64,000 nucleotides of DNA from Bispira polyomma (GCA_965649765.1 OZ287756.1:35712001-35776000), one strand, 5' to 3'. Positions 26,820 through 46,808 are shown, counted from the stretch's first letter. Notes: generated by a model not told the origin, from the letters alone. Numbers and translations: made by a program.

Positions 26820-29112
26820 CTCTTTTACGAAAGTTGGCAGATACGGCCTTCGTCAAGCCTCCTGCTGATAATGCCAGTGACCAATACACACAGTACTGCA
26901 CTGACCTGCAGTCTCTTATAGAACGCCATGCGCCATGTAAATCAAAGACATTGAAGAAGCCGGCACCTGAGTGAATCACCAGTAATTATCGTGAAATGAA
27001 GATGCTGCGCAGATAAGCCGAACGAACATGGCACCGAAACAAAACTACTACAAATAGATCTAGACTACGCCAATGGATCACCCGGTGCAACAACACTATA
27101 AATGACTCAAAACGTGCCTACTATGCCAACATGACATATCACAAAGCAAGGGTGACCCGAAGAAACTTTGGCAAAAGCTAAATAGCACCCTCCACCGTAA
27201 AAAACAGACTATACTACCCGAAAATTGCAATAGCAAATCACTGGCAAACATTTTTAGTACTTTTTTCACTGATAAAATTACCAGAATCCATGACCGTTTT
27301 ACATTAGTCGCCCCAAATGCCCCTTTACCAACAGCTCCACCAACCGTCTTCAACTGTTTCTCCACAGTAACTGTTGATGAAGTCAGGAAAATTATACTGG
27401 CATCACCCGTAAAATCTTGCTTGCTAGATCCGTGGCCCACATTCCTTGTTAAGGAATGTATTGACATTTTATTGCCCTCAATCACAAAACTTATCAACCT
27501 CTCGTTGGTAAATGGCGTCTTTCCAGATGATTTTAAAAAGGCCATTGTCACTCCTTTAATAAAAAAACCTTCTCTTCCAAAGGCTGACTTGAAAAATTAC
27601 CATCCTGTCTCAGGCCTTTGCTATATCTCTAAGTTGGTAGAACGCGCGGTTGCCTTACAGATCAAACAACATGTTGACGTCAGCAATCTGTCAAATAAGT
27701 ATCAGTCAGCGTACAAAAGTGGTCATTCTACTGAGACTGCACTTCTCTGCATCAAAAATGATGTTCATAAATCTTTATCCAAAGGTATGCCTACTGCCTT
27801 AGTACTGCTGGATCTGTCAGCAGCTTTTGATACTATTGATCACAAAGTTCTTCGTCAGTGCCTATCGTCTTGGTTCGGTATCAGCGGTATGGCGCTTAAG
27901 TGGTTCACTGCATATTTGTCTGATAGATTCCAATCAGTCAAAATTGGCAATATCTTATCCGACCCAACATGGTTCAAAGTTGGTGTTCCCCAAGGTTCCG
28001 TCCTGGGTCCCATTTTGTTTTCCATGTACACCACTCCACTCAGCAAGATTATTGCTGCATACAAAAACATAAACTTTCACTTCTATGCTGATGATACCCA
28101 ACTGTATATCCACCTTACACCTGACTCTGCCAAGGCAGCTTTCACTTCCTTACAGAACTGCCTTGTTGATGTACAACACTGGATGGCAGCAAATAAACTC
28201 AAGCTGAACCCTGAGAAGACTGAGTTTATTTTGTTTGGCTCCAAGTCGCAACAGGAAAAATTGTCCTGTTGTTTTCCACTTGACATTCTTGGCAGCAGGT
28301 TTTCTCCAGCTGACAAAGTACGAAATCTGGGTGTGGTGTTCGACTCTGAATTCTCCTTCTCTAACCATGTCGCAGCGGTGTGTAGATCATGTTTTGTTGG
28401 CCTCCGTGATTTCAGGCGGATTCGACGCTATCTTTCCAAATCCACTGCAATCACTGTTGCCAATGCTTTGGTCAGCAGCAGGCTTGATTACTGCAACTCT
28501 TTGTTCCGTTCCTTATCTCGTAGTGATCTCAGACGCCTTCAGAATATCCAACACTCGTTGGCACGTATTGTGACCAAAACTTCTAAATTTTCCCACATTA
28601 CTCCTGTACTCAAGTCACTGCACTGGCTCCCAATAAAGTATCGTGTTGCTTTCAAAACAGCAACAATAATATATAAATTTCTAAATTCTGGATTACCCAC
28701 TTATTTTAGCCCCCATCTATCCAAATATACATGCTCAGTCAGGACAAGGCGCAGTAACCCTGATAAATTATACCTTAACATTCCCACTTTCGACCTTCGC
28801 ATCCACAAATCCAAAGTTCAGTTCAATCACTGCCTAGCTCATGATGGCCCCCTCATTTGGAACAGCCTACCTGATCATGTTCGCCTGGCTCAAACTTTCT
28901 CCTCTTTCAGGAGTAAGCTGAAGGCCTATCTTTTTGAACAGGCTTTTCCACCTTAGCCGTCGCAACCATTTACGGTAGTCTCCCTGGTTACGACTTCCAT
29001 CCGCCCACTATTTTTGATTTTCGATTAACGTTTTGGGTTTGTTGTGCCTTAGAATTTGTTGTACAAAGATTAAGCGCTATAAAAGTACGACTAGATTAGA
29101 TTAAATTAGATT
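26820..29112 (+). mobile_element. L2/CR1-group non-LTR retrotransposon lacking the endonuclease region
   Basis: ORF2 linker (LIERHAPCKSK..., KGDPKKLWQKL) with stops at 26972 and ~27013 and a frameshift near 27135, then an open RT frame; 3' stem-loop and (TAGAT)n tail at 29091-29112. Confidence 0.93.
27421..28956 (+). CDS. LINE ORF2 reverse transcriptase domain and C-terminus (frame open from ~27140; probably not independently translated)
   Basis: RT motifs LLDLSAAFDTIDH, GVPQGSVLGPILF and FYADDTQLY; L2-type SRLDYCNSL and HITPVLKSLHWLPI; ends with KLKAYLF. Confidence 0.9.
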   Translation: MLDPWPTFLVKECIDILLPSITKLINLSLVNGVFPDDFKKAIVTPLIKKPSLPKADLKNYHPVSGLCYISKLVERAVALQIKQHVDVSNLSNKYQSAYKSGHSTETALLCIKNDVHKSLSKGMPTALVLLDLSAAFDTIDHKVLRQCLSSWFGISGMALKWFTAYLSDRFQSVKIGNILSDPTWFKVGVPQGSVLGPILFSMYTTPLSKIIAAYKNINFHFYADDTQLYIHLTPDSAKAAFTSLQNCLVDVQHWMAANKLKLNPEKTEFILFGSKSQQEKLSCCFPLDILGSRFSPADKVRNLGVVFDSEFSFSNHVAAVCRSCFVGLRDFRRIRRYLSKSTAITVANALVSSRLDYCNSLFRSLSRSDLRRLQNIQHSLARIVTKTSKFSHITPVLKSLHWLPIKYRVAFKTATIIYKFLNSGLPTYFSPHLSKYTCSVRTRRSNPDKLYLNIPTFDLRIHKSKVQFNHCLAHDGPLIWNSLPDHVRLAQTFSSFRSKLKAYLFEQAFPP

Positions 29113-40845: not shown

Positions 40846-42684
40846 ACGTTTTCATTTTTATAACCTGGGAAATATTGACCAAGTAATGGATTATTTTCTT
40901 ATATTGTGAAAATACATTGTTTGCACAGATATAGTTGTTTGTTGAATATTTTACCAAGGCACTTCTTAGATCAACTTTACATTTACTGGTGTTCAACAAA
41001 TAAGTTCTTCAAATTCTTCTGGTATAGGTTTACTATATTTTGTGTTCTAATGGATTACAAAGAAATTAAATTATGGAAGTCCTTTTAATTACCATTGGAA
41101 AGTTTTATATTTTTTTTTTATTTTTTTTTTTTTTTTTTTTGTTGTTGTTGTAATTGAGCTATGTTTATGTTTTTTGATAAAATCAGTGTAAAAATCTAAC
41201 CGTAATATTTTTGCGAGGTGGCGTTATGACGGTTCCCCAAAACTTATGTTCACTTATAGTTGACTAACCTCATTAATTGTAACAGTGGTTTTTTTAATCA
41301 TATGAATATTATGTTATATGATAAGCCTAAGTGGCTGCTTCTCATTGATTTTCTAGAAGACCTGGATTTATATTTCAATTAGTTGTTCGTGATTGACAAA
41401 CTTAAACCTTGAGGTTTTATCTCTGCTGCTACTCAGGAGCTTAAGGATATAGTGAAAACATCATCTAACTTTTACAGATCCGGTTGACTTCTTATTGCCC
41501 AAAGAGGGAATGCAGAAGCAATATCTACAACTTATAACATGGTATATGAACCATACATGGTGCTGATCTGCAAGTCATAGTATCACCAAGTAGTATCATA
41601 TGGTCGTGGTAGACACATATACATACAACAGGGTCTACCTCGTTGGATCTGGATGTCAGTCCTCAAACAAACAAATATGTGATAGCAAAGAAAAGACCCA
41701 TTGTGATAACCTAGATGTGAATACTTTATAAAGTTATTATACAATTGAAATGTGTGATATTTGAACGACATTTGTGTATCAGTTAATCTTCTCAAATATA
41801 TTGTTACACATCCATTTGATACTTTTCATTTGATTTGATATTACAATGAAATTTTATTTTTGGCAGTTAAACACAAACCCCACATTGCAGTAGATGAAAG
41901 CTCCATTCAAATATCATGAAATGTTTGTATAATGTGGAACCATACAAAAAAAATCGGTTATAACATGGGTGACACTTTTAATATCACAAATATCACAAGA
42001 GTATGAAATCATTATTTTATTGTCAAAAGCAGTAGCAATTTATTAACATGGACATATAACAGCACATTGACAACAAAACCATATTTACTCTAGCTTTGAA
42101 GCACTGACTAGCTGTAAAACAACACTGGTCTGGGATATAAAGAGATGTAAAGAAAGCAACTAAAACTTGTAAAACGAGTCAATAAAAGATTCAAGCAGAG
42201 CTATGGTACATGCAGAAAAATATAGTGCATTTTGTAGACAGTCTTAATATAGGGATAAAAATTGTGAAATATATTTAATTAATACCATATATTTTATCAA
42301 ATTTGTAGTAAAACACAATATCCTTATTAATAGCTTGTATACATTCCAATATTCATATATTTATTTCTTACATTTTCTTCAGATTATGCAGCACATGTAT
42401 TTGTTGTGCCCTGTAATATCAACTGTTTCAAGGTTAACATGTAATTTTAAATATTTGGCACTAAAAATCTTCAGCAACGTAGTTGAGACACAGACATTTT
42501 GTGTTTTAAGATTCCTCTGAAACAAGAAATGTTCATGACTCATCATAAGCTATGTATAAAGGTAAAAGTTCAACCGTGTGAATGATTGATTCAACATAAA
42601 ATTGGTTACTCCCAATGTCATAACTAATACAACCCAAGGTACCCAATGTGTCGCGCATCATGACTCGTGTTATAATGGTGCTTT

Positions 42685-45393
42685 CTAGTCACTTGCTTGA
42701 CCAGAGTATAGTAACATACATTCTGACAGTGATGACAAAAGGTTGTACATTGCTGTGTCTTTACTTCTGGCCAGACTCTGGTAGTTATCTACTTCCTGGG
42801 ACGTATCCATCATGGCATCTGCTACGTGATCTTGTTTCGCTTTTCTCAGAGCGTTGATAAAAGCCTCAAAAGCTTTGGGACCACATCTTGGAAGAATCAG
42901 CAGCAAAGCTTGTATTCTGAATTTACGTGTCCGCAGAGTTCCAATTTCTTCAACTTGGTCCACTGTTAACACAGATTCCTGTATTAAGTAATCCGTTAAG
43001 TCTCTTGCTTCAACCTCTTCTACCAGAAGTTGTCTGTGTTGGATGAGTTTTTTCTTGTGTTCGTCTGTCATCCCAGCTCGGTGGGCATGTCGCCTTTTAG
43101 AGATCGCCTCACACCGATCTGTAAAGTAATCCAAGTTAAACTGAAGCTCTTCCTGGTCTGCTTCTGTAAATGTTGCCTTGTGCTGTACAACTTGTCTCAA
43201 CCTAAAAATAGCTTCATATAGTTCTGTATCAGATGACGAAAGCCGATTACAACGACCTTTGTCTTTCATTGAATTACATATAAGCGTCTTTATTCTTGGG
43301 TCTTTTGCATCTGGTTGCATATTGTCAAAGATGTCTTTCACAGTTTGTTTGAAGGTATTTTGCAAGTGGACATATTTCTTAGATTTTTCAAACAGATGTC
43401 GAAAATCCTCTGCTTTTAAGGTAGTCACACCATACATTAATGGAGTATAACCTTGACAGTCTTGCAGGGATAAATCAATGTTGCTGTGGTCAAGAAGAGC
43501 AAGCATCATTTCTTTGTGATCGTGATTCTTTGATGCATAATGCATGACACTTCTACCGTCCACATCCTGATAGTTAACATTGCAGTCTGGATGTGCAAGG
43601 ATGAGCTTGACAACCTCCAATGATCCACTTTCAGAGGCAGCAATAAAGGCCTCACCTAATGTCTCTGGTGTGAACTTTTGTCTTAATATTACTTCCAAAA
43701 AAGGTATCTGCTTTGCCTCTAAAGCAATGCGAAGGGCAGTTTTACCATCTCTATCTTTAACGTTGATGTTCAATTGTGTCGGATAACGAAGCAGACTGCG
43801 TAAGAATTTTATATTGTTAGTATATGCAGCTATAATAACACAAGTCTGACCGGCTTCGTTACATCTGTTTATTTCAAGGTTTCTGGCCCTTAGCAAACAC
43901 TCAAGACCATCATCAGAAAACTCAGTTTCTTGAGCCAGCAAATGTAAACTGGTATTTCCTCCTGAATCACACACATTTGGATCTATGCTTGGTAACTTTA
44001 ACAGTAGTTCAGTTATATTAACACACCGCCGCTGGATTGCATAGAACAGCAGTGACTTGCCCGCGGAATCTAGTTCGTTAATATGATTTGAAACATCTGG
44101 GTGTTGAAGTAAAGACTCAAAGTCTTCAAACTCACCTTCCATAGCCACCTGATGCATTAGAGGTAAACCCTTTGGTGCGGTTGTTGCAATCAAACTAATT
44201 TCGTGAAAATTATTGGCTTTGGCTAATATTGGAAATACACAAAAAAGTTTTCTCTGCAGAAGAATATCTAGAAGTGTTCTTTCAGGGTCTCCTTCAGTGG
44301 ACAATGAAAAATCTTTTCTTTCCACAATGACTTCTAAAACTTGACAAATATTCTGTTTATGTTCTGTATGTATGTAGCCAGCAGTCATAAGCCGTAGAAA
44401 TACACATTGTCCTTCTGTATCCAAGGTAATGGCATTGACCTCTGGATTGCGGAGCAACTCACTCAGTACCTCCAGAAATTCTGTTTTTCTTTCATTCTGA
44501 AATTGCGATACCAAGAAATGTGTCACTGTTTGGCCAGACTTGTCCTGCAGGTTAAGTTCTAGGTGTGTGAACTTGAGCAAGATTTGAACAACATCACGAC
44601 TCATGCAGTAAAACAATGGACTTCTTCCACAAGTATCTGTTTGTCTTAAAGCTTCCTGTGCAATACTAAGCGAACATATGTAAGCACAGAGTGAGGCGGA
44701 ATCCATGATAACAGCCATATGTAGGACATTGCGGTTATGTGAGTCTCTTGCATCACTCAGTTGCAAATTGTGGCCCTGATGCACACTTTCCAGTAGTGTC
44801 CTTATTGATTCTCTGCACCCAGTAAGAGCTCCTTGAAATGTACCAAACAACTTTACCATACACATAGTATCCACATTGTAGCCTCGTTTTAAACCCTTTG
44901 ATGATTCCATGAAGATAGAGACTATTTGCTGGATGAGAGACAGGTGCCCCTTAAGAATATCCACCGGAAGTCCTAGTAGTACCTGTTCTATGATGTCCCA
45001 CCAGCTGTTGTATGTCCCATCCCCAGATTGTTTGTTTTTAATGGCCCTGGTGAGAAAGGTTTCAGTGACTGTCTTGTTATCCATTTGACCAAGAACCATT
45101 TTGCGCAGAACGGTTTCAAAACAGGCCAATGACAAAATGGCCTCCTTCTCTAAGAGCACGTTCATTTTACGAACCATGTTTTCAACTGCGTTGGCCTTGG
45201 TTTGTTCCACGTGGTGTATCAGCAAATGTTCCACCAAGCTCTTCTGTTTAATCTTACTGTTGATACTGCCAAACATGGGGAGAAATGTAGAATGCAACTC
45301 GTTCTCAAACTGATCGGCATGTGCAGCAGGGTGGAAGATTGCCATTCTGTCATTCTGAACCATGCTGTGAAAATCAGAATCCCGTAAAGCCAT
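42685..45393 (-). CDS. intronless ankyrin-repeat protein with C-terminal CARD (~902 aa)
   Basis: Single open frame. The first in-frame ATG (AAAATGG context) is at 45393; the track's 45486 start is a GTG preceded by an in-frame TGA. About 12-14 ankyrin units (e.g. DSGGNTSLHLLA, DRDGKTALRIAL, DVDGRSVMHYAS) and a CARD MTDEHKKKLIQHRQLLVEEV...LLLILPRCGPKAFEAFINALR at ~42811-43071. Confidence 0.9.
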   Translation of the reverse strand: MALRDSDFHSMVQNDRMAIFHPAAHADQFENELHSTFLPMFGSINSKIKQKSLVEHLLIHHVEQTKANAVENMVRKMNVLLEKEAILSLACFETVLRKMVLGQMDNKTVTETFLTRAIKNKQSGDGTYNSWWDIIEQVLLGLPVDILKGHLSLIQQIVSIFMESSKGLKRGYNVDTMCMVKLFGTFQGALTGCRESIRTLLESVHQGHNLQLSDARDSHNRNVLHMAVIMDSASLCAYICSLSIAQEALRQTDTCGRSPLFYCMSRDVVQILLKFTHLELNLQDKSGQTVTHFLVSQFQNERKTEFLEVLSELLRNPEVNAITLDTEGQCVFLRLMTAGYIHTEHKQNICQVLEVIVERKDFSLSTEGDPERTLLDILLQRKLFCVFPILAKANNFHEISLIATTAPKGLPLMHQVAMEGEFEDFESLLQHPDVSNHINELDSAGKSLLFYAIQRRCVNITELLLKLPSIDPNVCDSGGNTSLHLLAQETEFSDDGLECLLRARNLEINRCNEAGQTCVIIAAYTNNIKFLRSLLRYPTQLNINVKDRDGKTALRIALEAKQIPFLEVILRQKFTPETLGEAFIAASESGSLEVVKLILAHPDCNVNYQDVDGRSVMHYASKNHDHKEMMLALLDHSNIDLSLQDCQGYTPLMYGVTTLKAEDFRHLFEKSKKYVHLQNTFKQTVKDIFDNMQPDAKDPRIKTLICNSMKDKGRCNRLSSSDTELYEAIFRLRQVVQHKATFTEADQEELQFNLDYFTDRCEAISKRRHAHRAGMTDEHKKKLIQHRQLLVEEVEARDLTDYLIQESVLTVDQVEEIGTLRTRKFRIQALLLILPRCGPKAFEAFINALRKAKQDHVADAMMDTSQEVDNYQSLARSKDTAMYNLLSSLSECMLLYSGQASD

Positions 45394-45864
45394 TTTTATC
45401 ACAATAGGAATACTATATTCATCTGCAGTGGTACTAGCGTGGACTGCTACAGCTCCTGTCGGAATCCAAATGGTTTCTGTGGGCACAAACGATTTTTCAG
45501 AGCATTTTCAACCTGTGTATGTCAAATAACTACAAATTCCTCAACAGGTTGATGGTATAACTGTTTACACATATATGAATCAGCGATACATTTGTTGGGG
45601 GAAATCCCACAGACCCAGAAAAAGCATTTCCCAGTATATTAATAAATTTTTAACCATGACTTACATGATATGTAGTGGACCCATTAACATTGTGTTGGCT
45701 TTTTCATTGTATTTGAACAAGTTCCTACATAAGACGGCTTTGGATGTACACATGTTATCATTATGTCATTTTGTTACCAGATAGAAACCACTCAGACATT
45801 TGTGTCCGCGGTGAGAAATCACTCGATACTTGAGCTGACGTGTGATTTGCAGTATATTTTTTAG

Positions 45865-46095
45865 AGCTAGCCTTGACTAGACTTTGGCTTGTAACTATTC
45901 AAATCACTGATCTCTCGCCTCTGCAGATCAAATGGTCGCGAGTTTGCCTCCAGTGATATCTATGGGGGAAAGGTGGTAGTTCCTTACTGTAGGTCGCTGG
46001 TTTCAGTACAGAACCTTGACCAACTGTATGCAGTGTTTCCTCTAGCGTTCCAACTATCCGTCACAATATAACCGAATTAAAAGTACTGAATTGGA
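45865..46095 (+). mobile_element. family A SINE (older copy of the same subfamily as 46557-46808)
   Basis: GAAAGGTGGTAGTTCCTTACTGT...AGAACCTTGACCAACTGTATGCAGTGTTTCCTC...GGACGTTAAATAT. Confidence 0.8.
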
Positions 46096-46556
46096 CGTTA
46101 AATATTCGAATTAATTTGAGTGAAATTCGTATCACAGTTGAGTCAGTCAACCTTGCTCAACTTTAAGCTCGAGTTAATCAAAAATCTTAAAATATTGAAG
46201 AATACAAATGTGAGTGTGTCACCATGGCAACTGAGCAAAAACTCGGAGTTGAGTCTGATTTAAATCTTTTTTTTTTCGAAAATACAGCCACAGGTTTATT
46301 TATGTTTGTATAACTACATACATAACTGGAGAGAGTCAACTATGTGAACTCCAAATCCAGGGGAATCAAAGCGGTCTTTATTGATTGGTGGTATTTTTAA
46401 AAAATGAAATTGTGGTCTTTATTCAGAGGTGGTCTGATTGTAGAGGTGGTCTCTTGAGCAGGTTTCACTTTAGAACTATATTCTTGTTAGACTGAAATCA
46501 CACGACAAAACAATATACAGGTAGGCTTATTTTTAGGGGAATCAACAATATAGGAT

Positions 46557-46808
46557 TTGAATTTGGATATTTAACGTCCACTCTAGTACCTTTTTAGTAG
46601 GTTATATTGGGACGGGTAGTTGGAAACGCTGGAGGAAACACTGCGTACAGTTGATCAAGGTTCTGCGCTGAAACCAGCGGCCCACAGTAAGGAACTACCA
46701 CCTTTCCCACATAGGCATTGGCAGGATTCGAACTCACGCCGCCCAGAGGTGAGAGACCAGTGATTGTGAAGCGCAATGCTTGCTAACCACAAGGCCACCG
46801 CGGCCCCC
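46557..46808 (-). mobile_element. young full-length tRNA-derived SINE (family A) with a perfect 16-bp TSD
   Basis: A box TGGCCTTGTGG and B box GAGTTCGAATCC on the minus strand; TSD ATCAACAATATAGGAT at 46541-46556 and 46809-46824. Confidence 0.92.

Follow-up and report, generated by a model that had tools for sequence, protein, structure and literature searches.

The uninterrupted 902-residue coding frame at 42685..45393 on the minus strand of the window (the whole 64,000-nucleotide stretch of DNA that was analysed) is a genuine, conserved gene belonging to a small lineage family, and its product joins a helical head and a long ankyrin array to a C-terminal CARD. What is new, as structure modelling predicts, is a family-specific helical hairpin placed before the CARD that would pair two chains as a dimeric four-helix bundle. 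We propose that the protein is an NTPase-free adaptor whose ankyrin arm would bind a target and whose paired CARDs would seed the recruitment of a RAIDD/caspase-2-type CARD partner, a reading whose chances we place a little below even.

What is the evidence for the gene itself? An ORF scan found zero internal stops over the 902 codons, and the probability of an open frame of such length arising by chance, given the base composition of the window, is approximately 3e-28. Contigs assembled from three of three public runs cover the ORF with zero letter differences and zero gaps, these runs being drawn from two samples of one study and possibly being the source of the assembly itself; all three behave as DNA, covering the sequence between genes and reaching high depth on repeats. 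The first AATAAA downstream of the stop, a candidate poly(A) signal, lies at 42360..42365 on the same strand. The neighbouring genes are likewise all on the minus strand: one that we take to be of Lhx2/9 type, split into several exons over approximately 12.5-18.7 kb, and the last exon of a presumably QSOX-like gene with an Erv1/Alr domain at 62.6 kb. The first-pass annotation had described a single-exon coding sequence among intron-split genes; this holds for the neighbours and for the coding frame, but beyond the frame an intron in the 5' UTR is possible, since a weak acceptor-like AG occurs near 45513. An Rfam search of the window returned zero RNA families, and 25 open frames of at least 75 aa between 38 and 61.5 kb gave zero coding matches save weak ones in a tandem repeat at 54 kb.

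Several repeats surround the gene. A high-copy MITE-like element with long terminal inverted repeats occupies window positions 45960-46714, approximately 570 bp upstream of the start codon, and the plus strand carries, at 27106-28956, a fragment of a LINE-type reverse transcriptase whose open frame spans 616 aa. A T-rich run at 41103-41140, which reads as poly(A) on the gene strand 1.55 kb past the stop, adjoins a high-copy repeat and is more likely a repeat tail than the relic of a retrocopy.

How is the protein built? The predicted models show helical repeats throughout, and the AlphaFold model contains no strand element of three or more residues. Residues 1-215 (44749..45393, minus strand, as are all features below) are modelled as an all-helical head (pLDDT 70, pTM 0.73) of approximately five helical hairpins that resembles a generic HEAT/ARM-like solenoid, possibly one of degenerate ankyrin-like repeats. 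Fold comparison with VIA-align gave a best Z of 10.7 (rmsd 4.0, 195 residues aligned), which is under the level that singles out one family and is trailed by a flat tail of TOG, CID and HEAT rows. For the same residues Foldseek returned zero matches at E≤0.001, a search of the host genome returned the self-match only, and Atlas feature matches (0.92-0.93) were mostly to ankyrin proteins. The mostly helical N-terminal region of the first-pass annotation is borne out by this model, and the head is best read as further solenoid rather than as an enzyme.

Thirteen ankyrin repeats follow at residues 216-670 (43384..44748), within the earlier estimate of approximately 12-14. Pfam (Ank_2, E 4.8e-35), the AlphaFold helices, Foldseek (top matches ankyrin-1, AnkB and DARPins) and the repeat register all identify the array, the count being taken from anchors at 220-648 by regular expression and by eye, with a capping helix pair on top. 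In alignments, residues 671-712 (43258..43383) form a family capping segment with the motif N..QTV.D. The hairpin (residues 721-768, 43090..43233) comes next, and a pattern search of residues 661-790 found no caspase-type cleavage motif. The CARD (residues 775-862, 42808..43071) is the best-conserved part of the protein, and the chain ends in a C-terminal helix (residues 863-902, 42688..42807) that the orthologue and one paralogue retain.

The RAIDD-like C-terminal CARD that the first-pass annotation had recognised stands. Pfam CARD (PF00619) matches residues 782-862 with E 2.7e-15 and 56.6 bits against a cut-off of 23.9, over profile positions 3-83 of 85; the best match among solved structures is RAIDD (3crd, E 2.7e-7), and the family profile is also nearest to RAIDD (E 3.5e-14). 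The CARD keeps the basic H1/H4 and acidic H2/H3 patches that serve CARD-CARD contacts. Likewise confirmed is the absence of a switch or kinase domain: among the nine Pfam families matched at E≤1 there is no NACHT, NB-ARC, kinase, Death (PF00531), FIIND, ZU5 or UPA.

The hairpin was formerly called a helical linker. Helical it is; a mere linker it does not appear to be, for this amphipathic segment is conserved in the family and is predicted to form a homodimer interface. When two copies of residues 700-902 were modelled together, the score was 0.44 versus 0.00 for the best control, at least 64% of the contacts agreed among runs, and pLDDT was at least 70. In a microbial calibration, 21 of 30 homodimers and 0 of 23 monomers attained the mark applied; in a eukaryote calibration 17 of 29 homodimers (7 of 16 from animals) and 0 of 30 monomers did so, the figure being only 1 of 7 for homodimers without an older solved relative. 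The modelled interface consists of the hairpin, arranged as an antiparallel four-helix bundle with L725, L732, L750 and F757 in its predicted core and the CARDs outside it; the dimer of two chains is a prediction of this model. A buried hydrophobic face in the hairpin is supported by evolution: among paralogue cells, 38 of 68 are hydrophobic at the interface, compared with 16 of 73 at the remaining hairpin positions (p 6e-5). Residues identical in the orthologue are not enriched there (12 of 23 interface positions, 13 of 25 others). Bundles of four helices are a common fold, and such a conserved face might also bury itself inside a single chain; the single-chain model is poor at residues 710-776 (pLDDT <50). 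In the 60 top PDB rows for the family profile the best-matching stretch never falls on the hairpin, and thus a memory of a close relative in the model is not evident. Finally, a hairpin profile built from four family loci, which match it by construction, scores family loci only among 17,076 frames of 178 loci, the next match being the copy on contig C14 at E 0.11.

Is the fusion recent? One other assembly-derived cluster contains an orthologue of 914 aa, 52% identical over 908 columns, colinear and with the same start, and its colinearity suggests that its coding frame is also without introns. Identity is highest in the CARD (58/88, 66%), intermediate in the ankyrins (53-55%) and lower in the head (100/215, 47%), and conservation is lowest at the protein ends and at the ankyrin positions that are varied in DARPin libraries, as we presume to place them on this protein. 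Across these two sequences the DARPin-type binding positions are conserved in 37 of 91 cases versus 113 of 208 for other non-framework positions (p 0.03), a lower conservation that does not equal positive selection. Only one species-level cluster (P0002/P0023) held an orthologue in searches that are weak at 25-30% identity, and a metagenome scan for the family gave 0 of 43 pattern matches. Horizontal transfer of the ankyrin arm was considered and gave no signal, its nearest generic ankyrins (insect, gut fungus and others) being scattered at approximately 25-30% identity.

Within the host genome (1.04 Gb in 75 contigs searched), the module of last ankyrin, cap, hairpin and CARD occurs at at least six loci on contigs C1, C9 and C14, three of them disrupted. 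The five further loci, a lower bound for the paralogues, are 24-27% identical to the 902-aa protein where aligned, and the ankyrin arms of the paralogues share 24-30% identity. Two are open, namely C9:62.87 Mb (a 650-aa frame with its 5' end unresolved) and C1:105.76 Mb (698 aa); C1:88.99 Mb, a 97% twin of the latter, carries a TAG, C1:89.64 Mb has an in-frame TAA, and C14:7.69 Mb has a frameshift, a stop and a cut CARD. The C1 twins, whose pN/pS is approximately 0.35, lie in an inverted duplicate of 97% identity (C1:88.6-89.0 versus C1:105.76-105.88 Mb) that includes a homeobox gene; this is a segmental duplication or an uncollapsed haplotype, and the copy at C1:88.99 Mb is perhaps allelic. 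An orthologue and divergent loci share the module; the fusion is therefore of long standing, with individual copies gained and lost, and the earlier suggestion of recent domain shuffling is not supported; six loci on three chromosomes, three of them disrupted, fit an immune-type pattern of gain and loss.

The first-pass annotation had also taken the absence of introns as a sign of retroposition or recent shuffling. This feature is not special here: 34 of 38 ankyrin/CARD matches sit in open frames of at least 400 aa, in a six-frame search that favours long exons, and long uninterrupted frames also occur in caspase genes of this genome. Since such frames are usual for its ankyrin genes, the lack of introns says little, and an old retroposition of the gene is still compatible with these data. 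In a CARD tree that retained 17 of 30 CARD loci, with near-copies and long branches excluded and four rows added, support for family monophyly was 57/39, so that monophyly is neither shown nor rejected. Separately, an ankyrin gene at C3:57.20 Mb (L039:5464-7533, plus strand) has the family's last repeat and cap, with its best match at C9:62.87 Mb (E 7e-11); it ends, without hairpin and CARD, in a short tail that looks RHIM-like by eye and has zero Pfam RHIM match at E≤10.

Which partners could such a CARD find? The genome contains at least 53 CARD matches and 66 caspase matches. At C3:53.72 Mb, caspase exons carrying SHG and QACRG are preceded at approximately 6 kb by a CARD-like exon, which scores 20.3 bits against the Pfam cut-off of 23.9 and in the tree falls on a long branch separate from the family. 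CARD matches lie approximately 1 kb ahead of NACHT matches at C4:80.62 and C13:1.03 Mb. A limited search, of 40 stretches near spliced caspases and nine near CARD exons, found no canonical caspase-2 or CRADD, and among 25 candidates there were zero NB-ARC matches in a search that is weak and can miss spliced genes. Canonical ankyrin exons with a CARD exon 1.4 kb further, putatively joined, occur at C11:6.19 Mb (L095) and C4:2.92 Mb (L098). The tree test excludes their CARDs from the family clade (p-AU 0.027), and therefore ankyrins and a CARD were apparently joined on at least two occasions even within this genome, which makes the family less surprising.

Other death-fold genes were seen alongside these. 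At C12:23.04 Mb (L038:4366-5724, plus strand) and C12:11.02 Mb (L037), an N-terminal CARD leads through a coiled segment into a Bcl-2 domain, and at the former locus one 453-aa frame contains both domains (CARD E 4e-17, Bcl-2 E 1.5e-21); we know of no described CARD-Bcl-2 fusion. Uninterrupted CARD-CARD-TPR-like genes of approximately 620-650 aa at C2:24.39 Mb (L031) and C1:31.63 Mb (L007) also combine repeats with CARDs and lack an NTPase. Many uninterrupted caspase-like genes are present (C6:35.81, C4:91.08, C10:23.58 and C6:27.80 Mb, among L070-L074, and others), some of which have a CARD-like prodomain missed by Pfam, an altered catalytic pentapeptide (QICQG, QVCSG) or a small subunit with a large insertion. 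Six dispersed, near-identical genes of a CARD-plus-proline-rich type, some of them broken, lie at C8:1.47, C7:59.87, C2:54.47, C9:66.44, C11:3.94 and C11:14.81 Mb (L053, L054, L056, L057, L059 and L060) and look like mobile-element cargo or recent duplication. As for the host, the Hox cluster on C13 includes rows that we take to be Post2- and Lox4-like, and one gene with KLTGP after the homeodomain. A passage of PMC5431905 names KLTGP as marking Lox5 in lophotrochozoans and flatworms; judged by such signatures, the host is a lophotrochozoan.

How does the protein compare with known systems? The pairing of ankyrin repeats with a CARD is not new; it is already characterised, in reverse order, in the fish protein Caiap, for which the passages of PMC5662874 describe an N-terminal CARD followed by 16 ankyrins (744 aa, two exons), ankyrins that bind active caspase, a CARD that self-oligomerises, and a range from cartilaginous fish to marsupials, with none found in invertebrates. 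Both proteins have a similar size and consist of a CARD and a long ankyrin array without NTPase or kinase. In the protein described here, however, the CARD at 782-862 stands behind the ankyrins at 216-670, a predicted dimer hairpin and a HEAT-like head are added, and the host is a lophotrochozoan rather than a jawed vertebrate. For residues 640-902 the top two Atlas matches (both 0.95, with 139-140 of 256 features in common) are chordate clusters of Caiap size, one of them named Caiap-like; protein searches returned none by the name Caiap, and among the 172 fetched proteins examined a CARD was present only in the query and its orthologue. Caiap is the closest functional comparison, and the present protein falls outside it by domain order and range. 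In a literature search of main texts for the ankyrin-then-CARD order, only Caiap surfaced, and it has the opposite one; the passages of PMC2575513, PMC2246300, PMC8260672 and PMC6208332 contain no ankyrin-then-CARD protein. Unannotated examples elsewhere are likely.

The next Atlas clusters, ANKDD1A/B (0.93-0.94), also place a C-terminal death-fold domain after an ankyrin array, their ankyrins preceding a death domain; here that domain is a CARD, with no Pfam Death match at E≤1, and we know of no comparable hairpin in ANKDD1A/B. Like NLRP1 and CARD8, the protein has a C-terminal CARD directly behind an oligomerising module, here a predicted one; theirs is the beta-rich UPA, freed by FIIND self-cleavage, whereas here it is a helical hairpin. 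Passages of PMC11874512 describe UPA-assisted CARD filaments for NLRP1/CARD8. The PIDDosome (PIDD1-RAIDD/CRADD-caspase-2) shares the RAIDD-like CARD and a repeat domain upstream of a death-fold module, but PIDD has LRR, ZU5, UPA and a death domain and relies on RAIDD as a bridge, whereas here the repeat arm and CARD are in one chain; in the passages of PMC11463336, PIDD is moreover not detected in lophotrochozoans. The protein has neither the NACHT or NB-ARC NTPase of NLR/Apaf-1 STAND proteins nor the ZU5/UPA (FIIND) module of PIDD1, NLRP1 and CARD8. It has no kinase family match either, RIPK2 and RIPK4 being defined by a protein kinase domain.

We propose the following sequence of events for the protein as an NTPase-free death or immune adaptor. 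First, the solenoid of head and ankyrins would bind a protein target, which might come from a pathogen or be a host protein that is damaged or modified. Second, two chains, paired through the hairpin as the model predicts, would carry two CARDs side by side, and target binding may cluster or unmask these pairs. Third, the CARD pairs would seed CARD-CARD assembly with a host partner, which could be a CARD caspase, a CRADD-type adaptor or a CARD-NLR, and a caspase would be activated by induced proximity. Recruitment of a CARD partner is suggested by analogy with UPA-assisted NLRP1/CARD8 (passages of PMC11874512), and on this reading the family would mirror vertebrate Caiap, reversed in order and convergent in origin, with an NLRP1/CARD8 layout. 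A best-conserved CARD together with less conserved binding positions would fit a fixed output and a looser input. The adaptor reading is favoured by a CARD that is nearest to RAIDD and most conserved, by its charged patches, by the predicted dimer with its hydrophobic interface, by the less conserved binding positions, by the gain and loss of family loci and by the candidate CARD partners in the genome. Against it stand the limited search that found no canonical caspase-2 or CRADD, the score of the C3 candidate CARD below the cut-off, a modelled interface that is the hairpin and leaves CARD-CARD contacts outside the model, and the precedent of Caiap, the only tested ankyrin-CARD protein found, which according to PMC5662874 binds caspase through its ankyrins and not its CARD. 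A role as a death-pathway adaptor, as first suggested, is still the best reading, yet that suggestion had left a Caiap-type mechanism, with ankyrins on active caspase, unconsidered.

In such a Caiap-like mechanism the ankyrin arm would grip active caspase, the hairpin and CARD would associate with further copies of themselves and so keep it in a large complex, and the protein would amplify a signal rather than sense one. We consider this unlikely for the present protein, even though it is the tested mechanism of Caiap (passages of PMC5662874), the Caiap-size chordate clusters head the Atlas matches, caspase genes are many and self-association is predicted by the dimer model; the domain order is reversed, protein searches returned zero Caiap sequences, and ankyrin arms as divergent as those of the paralogues (24-30% identical) suit varied targets better than one caspase surface. 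Equally unlikely is a decoy or brake, in which a dimeric CARD would cap or sequester its potential partners (CARD caspases, CRADD or CARD-NLRs), with placement or turnover set by the ankyrin arm. CARD-only inhibitors exist, the protein has no catalytic or switch domain, a constitutive dimer, as predicted, could cap a filament instead of seeding one, and the genome holds other CARD fusions of this broad type, including CARD with Bcl-2. However, a 670-residue solenoid that varies among paralogues exceeds the needs of a decoy, and filament caps often lose one charged CARD surface, whereas both are retained here. That the death-fold domain serves some other interaction outside apoptosis and immunity, as in an ANKDD1A-like scaffold, we judge quite improbable: the ANKDD1A/B clusters match well, ANKDD1A is reported in passages of PMC6318269 to act on FIH1/HIF1-alpha, and the copy is single and conserved over its full length with the orthologue, but a RAIDD-like CARD is the best-conserved part and the family turns over with disrupted copies. 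A recent retrocopy or silent, functionless pseudogene, to which the intron-free frame, the three disrupted loci of six and the poly(A)-like run 1.55 kb past the stop might point, is extremely improbable in the face of 902 open codons colinear at 52% identity with a 914-aa orthologue from the same start, conservation that varies by domain, and the lack of a spliced parent in our searches, the CARDs of the two putatively spliced ankyrin loci being rejected from the family clade (p-AU 0.027).

Finally, what would the family mean for these animals? The family is of interest mainly because APAF-1 and PIDD are reported to be missing from the group: passages of PMC11463336 state that molluscs, annelids and brachiopods are without both and call CRADD the sole CARD-containing activator, which leaves the question of what acts upstream of CARD caspases. 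If the protein does not activate caspases, it is another lineage-specific death-fold shuffle, of which invertebrate genomes hold many. If it does, it is a minimal receptor design that dispenses with an NTPase as switch, and ankyrins and a CARD would have been joined independently a second time, beside vertebrate Caiap. A broader idea, which we hold to be unlikely, is that a lophotrochozoan lineage evolved its own family of NTPase-free receptors. Each would combine a solenoid sensor that varies between copies, a novel four-helix bundle for dimerisation and a RAIDD-type CARD, and would switch on CARD caspases with no intermediary; copies would come and go, and output modules could be swapped, as the related gene with a RHIM-like tail in place of hairpin and CARD may illustrate. 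If true, this receptor family would supply a missing upstream activator of caspase-2/Y in these animals.
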